The notes below the pieces were generated by a model. That model was not told the DNA's origin. It ran no database searches and saw only the letters and a program-made list of their open reading frames with translations. DNA of 64,000 bases, taken from Escherichia coli. GTDB lineage: Bacteria > Pseudomonadota > Gammaproteobacteria > Enterobacterales > Enterobacteriaceae. The position numbers were made by a program, and so were the translations under genes. This document shows positions 32,041 through 34,557 of the stretch, in pieces (the first letter of the stretch is position 1; the number at the start of each line of letters is the position of its first letter). The DNA is taken from NCBI RefSeq assembly GCF_003334305.1, contig NZ_QOWS01000015.1, one strand, 5' to 3'.

Positions 32041-32622
32041 ATGGCGGTTCAAAAGAATGTTATCAAAGGCATACTGGCAGGTACGTTTGCGCTAATGCTG
32101 AGCGGTTGTGTCACTGTGCCGGACGCCATTAAAGGCAGCAGTCCCACGCCGCAACAAGATTTAGTTCGGGTGATGAGTGCGCCGCAGCTGTACGTTGGTC
32201 AGGAGGCACGCTTTGGTGGCAAAGTGGTTGCGGTACAAAACCAGCAAGGGAAAACCCGCCTGGAAATTGCTACTGTACCGCTGGACAGCGGAGCCAGACC
32301 GACGCTGGGAGAACCTTCTCGCGGTCGCATTTATGCCGATGTGAACGGTTTTCTGGACCCGGTGGATTTCCGTGGACAACTGGTTACGGTAGTCGGGCCA
32401 ATCACTGGTGCGGTTGACGGCAAAATCGGCAATACGCCCTATAAATTTATGGTGATGCAAGTAACGGGTTACAAACGTTGGCATTTAACCCAGCAGGTGA
32501 TTATGCCGCCTCAGCCGATTGATCCATGGTTTTATGGCGGTCGTGGCTGGCCCTATGGCTACGGCGGATGGGGCTGGTATAATCCCGGCCCCGCGAGAGT
32601 ACAAACAGTTGTAACTGAATAA
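32041..32622 (+). CDS. yeaY: Slp-family outer-membrane lipoprotein YeaY
   Basis: 193-aa ORF with lipobox LSGC. Confidence 0.85.
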
Positions 32623-32644
32623 TTGCTTGTTTTTAAAGAAAAAG

Positions 32645-32672
32645 AAACAGCGGCTGGTCCGCTGTTTCTGCA
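32645..32672 (+). terminator. yeaY terminator hairpin (overlaps distal FadR operator)
   Basis: AAACAGCGG-loop-CCGCTGTTT followed by TCTGCATTCTT. Confidence 0.55.
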
Positions 32673-32737
32673 TTCTTACGGTAAAGATAAAAATAAATAG
32701 TGACGCGCTTCGCAACCTTTTCGTTGGGTAATTATCA

Positions 32738-32754
32738 AGCTGGTATGATGAGTT
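32738..32754. promoter_or_regulatory. FadR operator in fadD promoter (proximal site); second FadR-like site at about 32648-32664
   Basis: AGCTGGTATGATGAGTT and GGCTGGTCCGCTGTTTC match the FadR consensus pattern TGGT-N-GA(C)C. Confidence 0.5.
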
Positions 32755-32826
32755 AATATTATGTTAACGGCATGTATATCATTTGGGGTTGCGATGACGA
32801 CGAACACGCATTTTAGAGGTGAAGAA

Positions 32827-34512
32827 TTGAAGAAGGTTTGGCTTAACCGTTATCCCGCGGACGTTCCGACGGAGATCAACCCTGACCGTTATCAATCTCT
32901 GGTAGATATGTTTGAGCAGTCGGTCGCGCGCTACGCCGATCAACCTGCGTTTGTGAATATGGGGGAGGTAATGACCTTCCGCAAGCTGGAAGAACGCAGT
33001 CGCGCGTTTGCCGCTTATTTGCAACAAGGGTTGGGGCTGAAGAAAGGCGATCGCGTTGCGTTGATGATGCCTAATTTATTGCAATATCCGGTGGCGCTGT
33101 TTGGCATTTTGCGTGCCGGGATGATCGTCGTAAACGTTAACCCGTTGTATACCCCGCGTGAGCTTGAGCATCAGCTTAACGATAGCGGCGCATCGGCGAT
33201 TGTTATCGTGTCTAACTTTGCTCACACACTGGAAAAAGTGGTTGATAAAACCGCCGTTCAGCACGTAATTCTGACCCGTATGGGCGATCAGCTATCTACG
33301 GCAAAAGGCACGGTAGTCAATTTCGTTGTTAAATACATCAAGCGTTTGGTGCCGAAATACCATCTGCCAGATGCCATTTCATTTCGTAGCGCACTGCATA
33401 ACGGCTACCGGATGCAGTACGTCAAACCCGAACTGGTGCCGGAAGATTTAGCTTTTCTGCAATACACCGGCGGCACCACTGGTGTGGCGAAAGGCGCGAT
33501 GCTGACTCACCGCAATATGCTGGCGAACCTGGAACAGGTTAACGCGACCTATGGTCCGCTGTTGCATCCGGGCAAAGAGCTGGTGGTGACGGCGCTGCCG
33601 CTGTATCACATTTTTGCCCTGACCATTAACTGCCTGCTGTTTATCGAACTGGGTGGGCAGAACCTGCTTATCACTAACCCGCGCGATATTCCAGGGTTGG
33701 TAAAAGAGTTAGCGAAATATCCGTTTACCGCTATCACGGGCGTTAACACCTTGTTCAATGCGTTGCTGAACAATAAAGAGTTCCAGCAGCTGGATTTCTC
33801 CAGTCTGCATCTTTCCGCAGGCGGAGGGATGCCAGTGCAGCAAGTGGTGGCAGAGCGTTGGGTGAAACTGACAGGACAGTATCTGCTGGAAGGCTATGGC
33901 CTTACCGAGTGTGCGCCGCTGGTCAGCGTTAACCCATATGATATTGATTATCATAGTGGTAGCATCGGTTTGCCGGTGCCGTCGACGGAAGCCAAACTGG
34001 TGGATGATGATGATAATGAAGTACCACCGGGTCAACCGGGTGAGCTTTGTGTCAAAGGACCGCAGGTGATGCTGGGTTACTGGCAGCGTCCGGATGCTAC
34101 AGATGAGATCATCAAAAATGGCTGGTTACACACCGGCGACATCGCGGTGATGGATGAAGAAGGGTTCCTGCGCATTGTCGATCGTAAAAAAGACATGATT
34201 CTGGTTTCCGGTTTTAACGTCTATCCCAACGAGATTGAAGATGTCGTCATGCAGCATCCTGGCGTACAGGAAGTCGCGGCTGTTGGCGTACCTTCCGGCT
34301 CCAGTGGTGAAGCGGTGAAAATCTTCGTAGTGAAAAAAGATCCATCGCTTACCGAAGAGTCACTGGTGACCTTTTGCCGCCGTCAGCTCACGGGTTACAA
34401 AGTACCGAAGCTGGTGGAGTTTCGTGATGAGTTACCGAAATCTAACGTCGGAAAAATTTTGCGACGAGAATTACGTGACGAAGCGCGCGGCAAAGTGGAC
34501 AATAAAGCCTGA
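32827..34512 (+). CDS. fadD: Long-chain fatty acid CoA ligase
   Basis: ORF 32761..34512 trimmed to TTG start [14 protein letters not shown] (561 aa); AMP-binding motif [11 protein letters not shown]. Confidence 0.9.
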
Positions 34513-34530
34513 GTGTTAAGTCAGTCGTCA

Positions 34531-34557
34531 GACGCCGGTTAATCCGGCGTTTTTTTT
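34531..34557 (+). terminator. fadD intrinsic terminator
   Basis: CGCCGG-TTAAT-CCGGCG stem followed by 8 T. Confidence 0.75.

Follow-up and report, generated by a model that had tools for sequence, protein, structure and literature searches.

Both FadR operators of fadD, its promoter, and its TTG start codon are already known from Escherichia coli K-12, having been described in 1992 (Black, DiRusso, Metzger & Heimert) and re-tested in 2012 (Feng & Cronan, PMC3460868). The later study, in agreement with the DNase I footprints published by Black et al. in 1992, puts the start of transcription 60 bp ahead of that of translation and the two FadR sites (the operators OD1 and OD2) ~68 bp apart. It reports that FadR binds site 2 more than 10-fold more weakly than site 1, that oleoyl-CoA abolishes FadR binding at both sites, and that deletion of fadR de-represses fadD only 2- to 3-fold (PMC3460868). 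In Citrobacter, Klebsiella, and Enterobacter, both sites are described there as "largely conserved". Another publication of this group assigns "fadD probe 2" a relatively high affinity, in conflict with the >10-fold weaker binding, and a 2022 review (PMC9329746) calls a site near -100 "surprising" for a repressor and states that its role was never tested in vivo.

The window analyzed here, a 64-kb stretch of E. coli DNA, carries this same pair of operators with identical sequence. We are highly confident that the region is the standard E. coli fadD control region and that its site 2 is weak, recent, and probably accessory, and not an ancestral second operator. Our additions to the known system consist only of an evolutionary reading of site 2 and a number of side observations.

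The genes around the site run in the order yoaA-tsaB-yeaY-fadD-rnd, all on the + strand (RefSeq annotation of an identical E. coli locus). The open reading frame list and this annotation place yeaY, which encodes an Slp-family lipoprotein, at 32041-32622 (+), and fadD, which encodes a 561-aa long-chain-fatty-acid--CoA ligase and begins with TTG, at 32827-34512 (+), with its start taken from RefSeq and its end from the open reading frame. A 601-bp query around the site found matches in 5426 of 5426 complete E. coli genomes, many of them at 100%. As the 208-bp yeaY-fadD spacer is 100% identical to that of K-12 derivatives such as ER2796, the published K-12 mapping transfers directly to the window. 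For comparison across species, we used the fadD locus from 80 species-representative genomes, a set that does not include Salmonella or Klebsiella. Rfam places no family in the yeaY-fadD spacer, and its only matches in the window are the small RNA sroD and the cspA thermoregulator. The sroD match (RF00370, 114.6 bits; 34471-34556) extends over the 3' end of fadD into the fadD-rnd spacer, and the Term-seq study of Adams 2021 lists 3' ends for fadD/sroD; the cspA thermoregulator match (RF01766, 135.7 bits) lies at 14961-15421 on the + strand.

The main operator, site 1 (O1), is the 17-mer AGCTGGTATGATGAGTT at 32738-32754 (+) and forms the core of the published probe fadD-FadR-site1, which corresponds base for base to window 32729-32764 (PMC3460868). 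Counting 60 bp back from the start codon at 32827 puts the published transcription start at an A, position 32767 (+). Relative to this start, O1 spans -29 to -13, filling the 16-bp spacer between the -35 and -10 hexamers along with the first base of the -10, and so overlaps the core promoter as expected of a repressor. Judging from where O1 lies, a FadR dimer bound to it would cover the whole spacer and block RNA polymerase. O1 is also conserved: a 17-mer of the same type, AnCTGGTnnnnnnAGTT, lies 85-96 nt upstream of the start codon in nearly all Enterobacterales loci, and the site is found from Escherichia to Photorhabdus, usually as AACTGGTACGCTGAGTT.

The two hexamers that flank site 1 can be placed by reading the sequence against the published start: a predicted -35, TTATCA, at 32732-32737 (+), which matches four of six consensus positions, and a predicted -10, TAATAT, at 32754-32759 (+), which ends 7 nt ahead of the start. 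Our promoter scan, with a minimum of 9/12, did not report this pair, which matches at 8/12, and so modest a match to the promoter consensus fits CRP dependence. The scan's sole promoter match, TTAATA-18-TATCAT at 32753-32782, is not the mapped promoter and was rejected. For CRP-cAMP itself, the half-sites AGTGA (32699-32703) and TCGCA (32710-32714) can be read directly from the DNA as AGTGA-N6-TCGCA at 32699-32714 (+), within the published probe fadD-CRP-site (window 32681-32728), and this block is conserved through the Enterobacterales. With its center near -60.5, the site occupies a class I position, from which CRP-cAMP would be expected to activate. Published work shows that the fadD promoter is CRP-dependent and starts transcription at 32767, and that FadR binds both 17-mers in vitro and is released by long-chain acyl-CoA, so that fadD is de-repressed when fatty acids are available. 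As a separate observation, the stretch TGGTATGAT within site 1 (32741-32749) reads as an extended -10 element (TGn + TATGAT); transcripts from it would begin ~10 nt upstream of the mapped start, and FadR bound at site 1 would cover this element.

The weak upstream operator, site 2 (O2), is the 17-mer GGCTGGTCCGCTGTTTC at 32652-32668 (+), corresponding to -115 to -99. The published probe fadD-FadR-site2 has this 17-mer as its core and matches window 32644-32676 base for base (PMC3460868). Centered at -107, O2 lies upstream of the CRP site and lacks the overlap with the core promoter expected of a repressor. The DNase I footprints of 1992 are reported to span -13 to -29 and -99 to -115, limits that fit O1 and O2 exactly. 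The first-pass annotation had proposed two FadR-like operators at the fadD promoter, and both 17-mers stand exactly as it quoted them; its claim would have failed had the mapped FadR sites lain elsewhere in the promoter, and the published site 1 and site 2 probes hold exactly O1 and O2 (PMC3460868). On affinity, the single-stranded DNA of the site 2 probe folds on itself (-11.7 kcal/mol), so gel shifts may understate how well FadR binds site 2.

A FadR motif scan, which the first-pass annotation had put forward as a check, returned both sites as compatible and could not settle the matter. O1 differs from the consensus ANCTGGTCNGACNTGTT at three positions, and the window holds six sites that good compared with 4.3 expected. 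O2 differs from it at five, as one of 282 sites in the window with at most five mismatches (about one per 230 bp), and has seven mismatches to the stricter consensus aaCTGGTCnGACC(T/A)Gtt. The left half-site, CTGGT(C/A), is intact in both O1 and O2; such a match is compatible with a FadR site without being diagnostic of one. We therefore rejected the consensus scan as a test of the operators. Sequence alone being insufficient (by that measure site 2 is indistinguishable from chance), we base the operator status of both sites on the published binding experiments and that of O1 also on its conservation.

What sets site 2 apart is its surroundings, since O2 lies wholly within a hairpin that follows yeaY. 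The hairpin (32643-32669, +) is a perfect 11-bp inverted repeat in which 32643-32653 pairs with 32659-32669, giving the stem AGAAACAGCGG / CCGCTGTTTCT with six G-C pairs around the loop CTGGT (32654-32658), and it begins 21 nt past the yeaY stop (32622). The predicted RNA fold has an energy of -17.2 kcal/mol (z = -3.8), which none of 200 shuffles matched. A hairpin stands shortly after yeaY in most of the Enterobacterales loci examined, followed in many by a T-run and with unrelated sequences in distant genera; its recurrence at this place indicates that a yeaY terminator there is ancestral. Pairing is also well maintained in the alignment. Across 25 distinct Enterobacteriaceae sequences, 97.8% of stem cells are paired, compared with 40-67% when the partners are slid by one to three columns. 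Three stem pairs (12-36, 14-34, and 21-27; 10 cells) change on both sides, for instance from A-U to G-C or from G-C to C-G, and the covariation score was reached by none of 500 shuffles. We also considered whether the hairpin could be the operator's own palindrome and rejected this, as the two symmetry axes are 4 bp apart (hairpin center 32656, operator center 32660).

The tract that follows the stem is less typical of a terminator in E. coli. After the stem, the + strand has four T in its best 8-nt window, below the scan minimum of five; the run is interrupted in E. coli, E. albertii, and Citrobacter (GCATTCTT, 4/8 T), while 15 of the 25 distinct Enterobacteriaceae sequences have five to seven T in the eight positions after the stem. 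The E. coli stem itself ends in UUUCU, and partial terminator function remains plausible. Our consensus terminator scan did not call the hairpin on the + strand, and its sole call between 32400 and 33000 is on the - strand, where the stem is followed by TTTTTCTTTAA with T at seven of eight positions. Among the 3' ends listed in the supplements of Adams et al. 2021 and of TERMITe, none belongs to yeaY, and two of the Adams lists have no entry between 1888020 and 1893787; low expression of yeaY or incomplete listings could explain this absence. Our full-text literature search returned nothing relevant on yeaY together with fadD or a terminator. By comparison with other genera, in position and covariation, the hairpin is well supported as a probable intrinsic terminator of yeaY, with a weak U-tract in E. 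coli. The first-pass annotation had placed O2 inside the yeaY terminator: the overlap is real and the terminator draws support from position and covariation, while the poor E. coli U-tract and the missing + strand call weigh on the other side.

How the operator fits into the hairpin can be read from its two halves. The right half of O2 coincides with the right arm of the stem, while the FadR core CTGGTC is formed by the loop and the first stem base. Among the 25 distinct sequences, only those of E. coli, E. albertii, and Pluralibacter have CTGGTC; those of other genera read CTCGTC, CTTGTC, CGTGTC, CTTAGC, CTCAGC, CCGGTC, ACTATC, CTAAGC, CTAGTC, CCTGGC, or CGGGTC at the same place. The core varies within E. 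coli as well: exact-word searches found CTGGTC in 4394 of 5426 complete genomes and CCGGTC in 1028 (~19%). When strains with CCGGTC were aligned (ST131-type), both stem arms were intact, and the polymorphic T is that at window position 32655. From these comparative data, it would appear that the sequence around site 2 is kept mainly as the yeaY terminator hairpin and that the FadR core, which starts in the hairpin loop, arose in the Escherichia lineage. We accordingly read the conservation of site 2 noted in the literature as mostly conservation of the terminator stem, with a FadR-specific part that is probably young and weakly constrained. A core of this kind fits the weak binding, the odd position, and the review's remark on in vivo evidence (PMC9329746). 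The "compact arrangement" of terminator and operator noted in the first pass is present in that the two do overlap, while the conserved part of site 2 is the stem and not the FadR core; the overlap resembles a chance product of the hairpin more than it does a conserved design.

Across these loci, the hairpin and site 1 keep an almost fixed distance of 86 bp (two genera have 96 bp), and phasing could matter. Several insertions have entered this interval. An insertion of 10-11 bp, about one helical turn, lies between the hairpin and the CRP site in RIT691 and Pluralibacter (L013, L015 1285-1500), and one soil metagenome-assembled genome has 126 bp inserted in the same interval (L014 1170-1500). 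In E. coli PEC301 (L085 1440-2414), the IS30-like element ISApl1 separates the CRP site from the yeaY hairpin and its site 2, at the equivalent of window ~32691/32692, and shifts site 2 ~1.1 kb from the fadD promoter.

These data bear on what site 2 does, if anything, for fadD. One reading makes it a genuine second operator, with FadR at -107 tuning repression either by cooperating with site 1, for example in a DNA loop over the CRP site, or by competing or cooperating with adjacent ArcA. Binding of FadR to site 2 in vitro and its release by acyl-CoA speak for this, as does an ArcA site reported to overlap site 2 by 1 bp (PMC3460868); the centers of the two FadR sites are 86 bp apart, ~8 helical turns, and the 10-bp insertion in two genera keeps the phase. 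We still hold a second operator to be unlikely, as the FadR core of site 2 is missing from most genera that retain both site 1 and the hairpin and is changed in 19% of E. coli genomes. The total FadR repression of fadD is only 2- to 3-fold (PMC3460868), and nature tolerates both the 126-bp and the ISApl1 insertions between hairpin and promoter. In the relevant literature searched, FadR looping or cooperative binding is likewise absent, and these words do not occur in PMC3460868.

Other readings start from the hairpin. FadR on site 2 might act as a roadblock to RNA polymerase leaving yeaY, replacing a decayed terminator and allowing read-through into fadD only once acyl-CoA removes it. Site 2 does lie exactly on the path of read-through, E. 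coli has a poorer T-run than most other genera, the consensus scan called no + strand terminator, and the Term-seq tables examined list no yeaY 3' end. This last absence may only reflect poor expression of yeaY, however, and Citrobacter has an equally poor T-run yet lacks the FadR core; together with the weak binding of FadR at site 2 and the CCGGTC form in 19% of E. coli genomes, this makes a roadblock very improbable. We regard as improbable, too, a broader Escherichia-specific exaptation of the yeaY terminator, in which drift of the loop to TGGT next to the right arm would have created a weak FadR site and decay of the U-tract would then have let FadR act there as a roadblock that responds to fatty acids, or as a gate for read-through from yeaY into fadD; were it true, the T32655C variant that ~19% of E. 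coli genomes carry would amount to a natural loss of function. The hairpin might alternatively serve mainly as a - strand terminator that stops antisense transcripts from the AT-rich fadD promoter region, and it was indeed on that strand that the only terminator-like call was made, with the better T-run. The A-run that gives this - strand T-run is not conserved between genera, though, whereas the + strand T-run mostly is, and the Term-seq lists examined contain no - strand 3' end. With no gene or known transcript converging from that side in the RefSeq annotation, we find a - strand role extremely improbable. Our preferred reading remains a probable yeaY terminator that contains a weak, recent, and probably accessory FadR site. 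In the same annotation, the - strand side has no gene that the hairpin would need to terminate.

Translation of fadD would begin at the TTG at 32827-32829, behind the Shine-Dalgarno sequence GAGG (32816-32819, +), which stands 7 nt before it; AGAGG or CAGGAG before the start is conserved in almost all loci. RefSeq annotates this TTG as the start and PMC1805508 gives it as the true EcoGene site, in agreement with the start proposed in the first pass, and it lies 73 nt past the end of O1, where about 75 bp had been estimated. Across 79 related loci, the aligned first codon of fadD is TTG in 47, GTG in 32, and ATG in none, and the N-terminus (L/V)-x-K-V-W-L aligns from that codon in all 79. The loci with TTG belong to the Enterobacterales, and those with GTG mostly to the Vibrionaceae, Aeromonas, and Shewanella, plus a few Enterobacterales. 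This pattern suggests that the preference for a weak start is conserved, and would fit a deliberately modest translation of FadD. N-terminal sequencing of FadD in the 1992 work is presumably the primary source for the TTG start.

A second start is conceivable at an in-frame ATG in the 5' UTR (32794-32796, +), 33 nt upstream of the TTG and preceded by GGGG (32785-32788). If translation began there at least in part, FadD would be 11 residues longer and the TTG would not be the sole start. The arrangement recurs: 34 distinct leaders have an ATG at exactly -33 that follows GGGG or GAGG, all of them free of in-frame stops, while the other two frames are stopped in 30 and 34 of them; those stops come mostly from conserved motifs and related sequences, and hence are not independent. 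A Bayesian start-site predictor published in 2007 (PMC1805508) also preferred the 32794 site, at 0.663 compared with 0.013, and made fadD a two-start candidate with 11 additional codons. Set against this, the same study counts the TTG as the verified EcoGene start, RefSeq does likewise, and the Shine-Dalgarno sequence before TTG or GTG is kept despite in-frame stops just upstream in Vibrio, Shewanella, Xenorhabdus, and Photorhabdus. The leader also shows only a weak three-base periodicity, with entropies of 0.91/0.72/1.12 compared with 0.33/0.08/1.17 in fadD itself. We consider use of the upstream ATG doubtful, and keep the TTG as the start. The start-site profiling data of PMC11005335 have no entry for fadD. 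The taxa with an ATG at -33 are the Enterobacteriaceae, Serratia, Pectobacterium, Dickeya, Brenneria, most Pantoea and Erwinia, and one Salinivibrio, and the 11 codons between this ATG and the TTG diverge among leaders. Two further candidates in this region were rejected: a 583-aa open reading frame from the ATG at 32761, which lies upstream of the transcription start at 32767, and a structured 5' UTR, as the 74-nt leader folds no better than its shuffles (z = +1.3).

The comparative result offers a cheap explanation for the odd site near -100, namely a covarying stem with a FadR core that starts in its variable loop and is polymorphic in 19% of E. coli. The CCGGTC allele provides a ready-made natural mutant for site 2 function, and the findings may be of modest practical use to builders of fatty-acid biosensors from the fadD promoter.

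The locus can be set beside several known systems. The 2012 study of the K-12 operators, which concerns the same object, does not contain the word "terminator" and leaves the yeaY hairpin overlap unmentioned (PMC3460868). Like other intrinsic (Rho-independent) terminators of the Enterobacterales, the yeaY hairpin has a GC-rich stem 20-30 nt past the stop, a conserved position, covariation, and, in most related genera, an adjoining T-run; it departs from them in the interrupted T-run of E. coli, E. albertii, and Citrobacter and in that no mapped 3' end was found for it. The fadL promoter is the other fad promoter that has two FadR sites; like that of fadD, it combines them with CRP and ArcA sites and is repressed only ~2-fold by FadR (PMC3460868). 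At fadL, however, the two FadR sites are 8 bp apart, equal in affinity, and located at the promoter, whereas those of fadD are ~68 bp apart and unequal, with the distal one upstream of the CRP site, in the hairpin of the neighboring gene.
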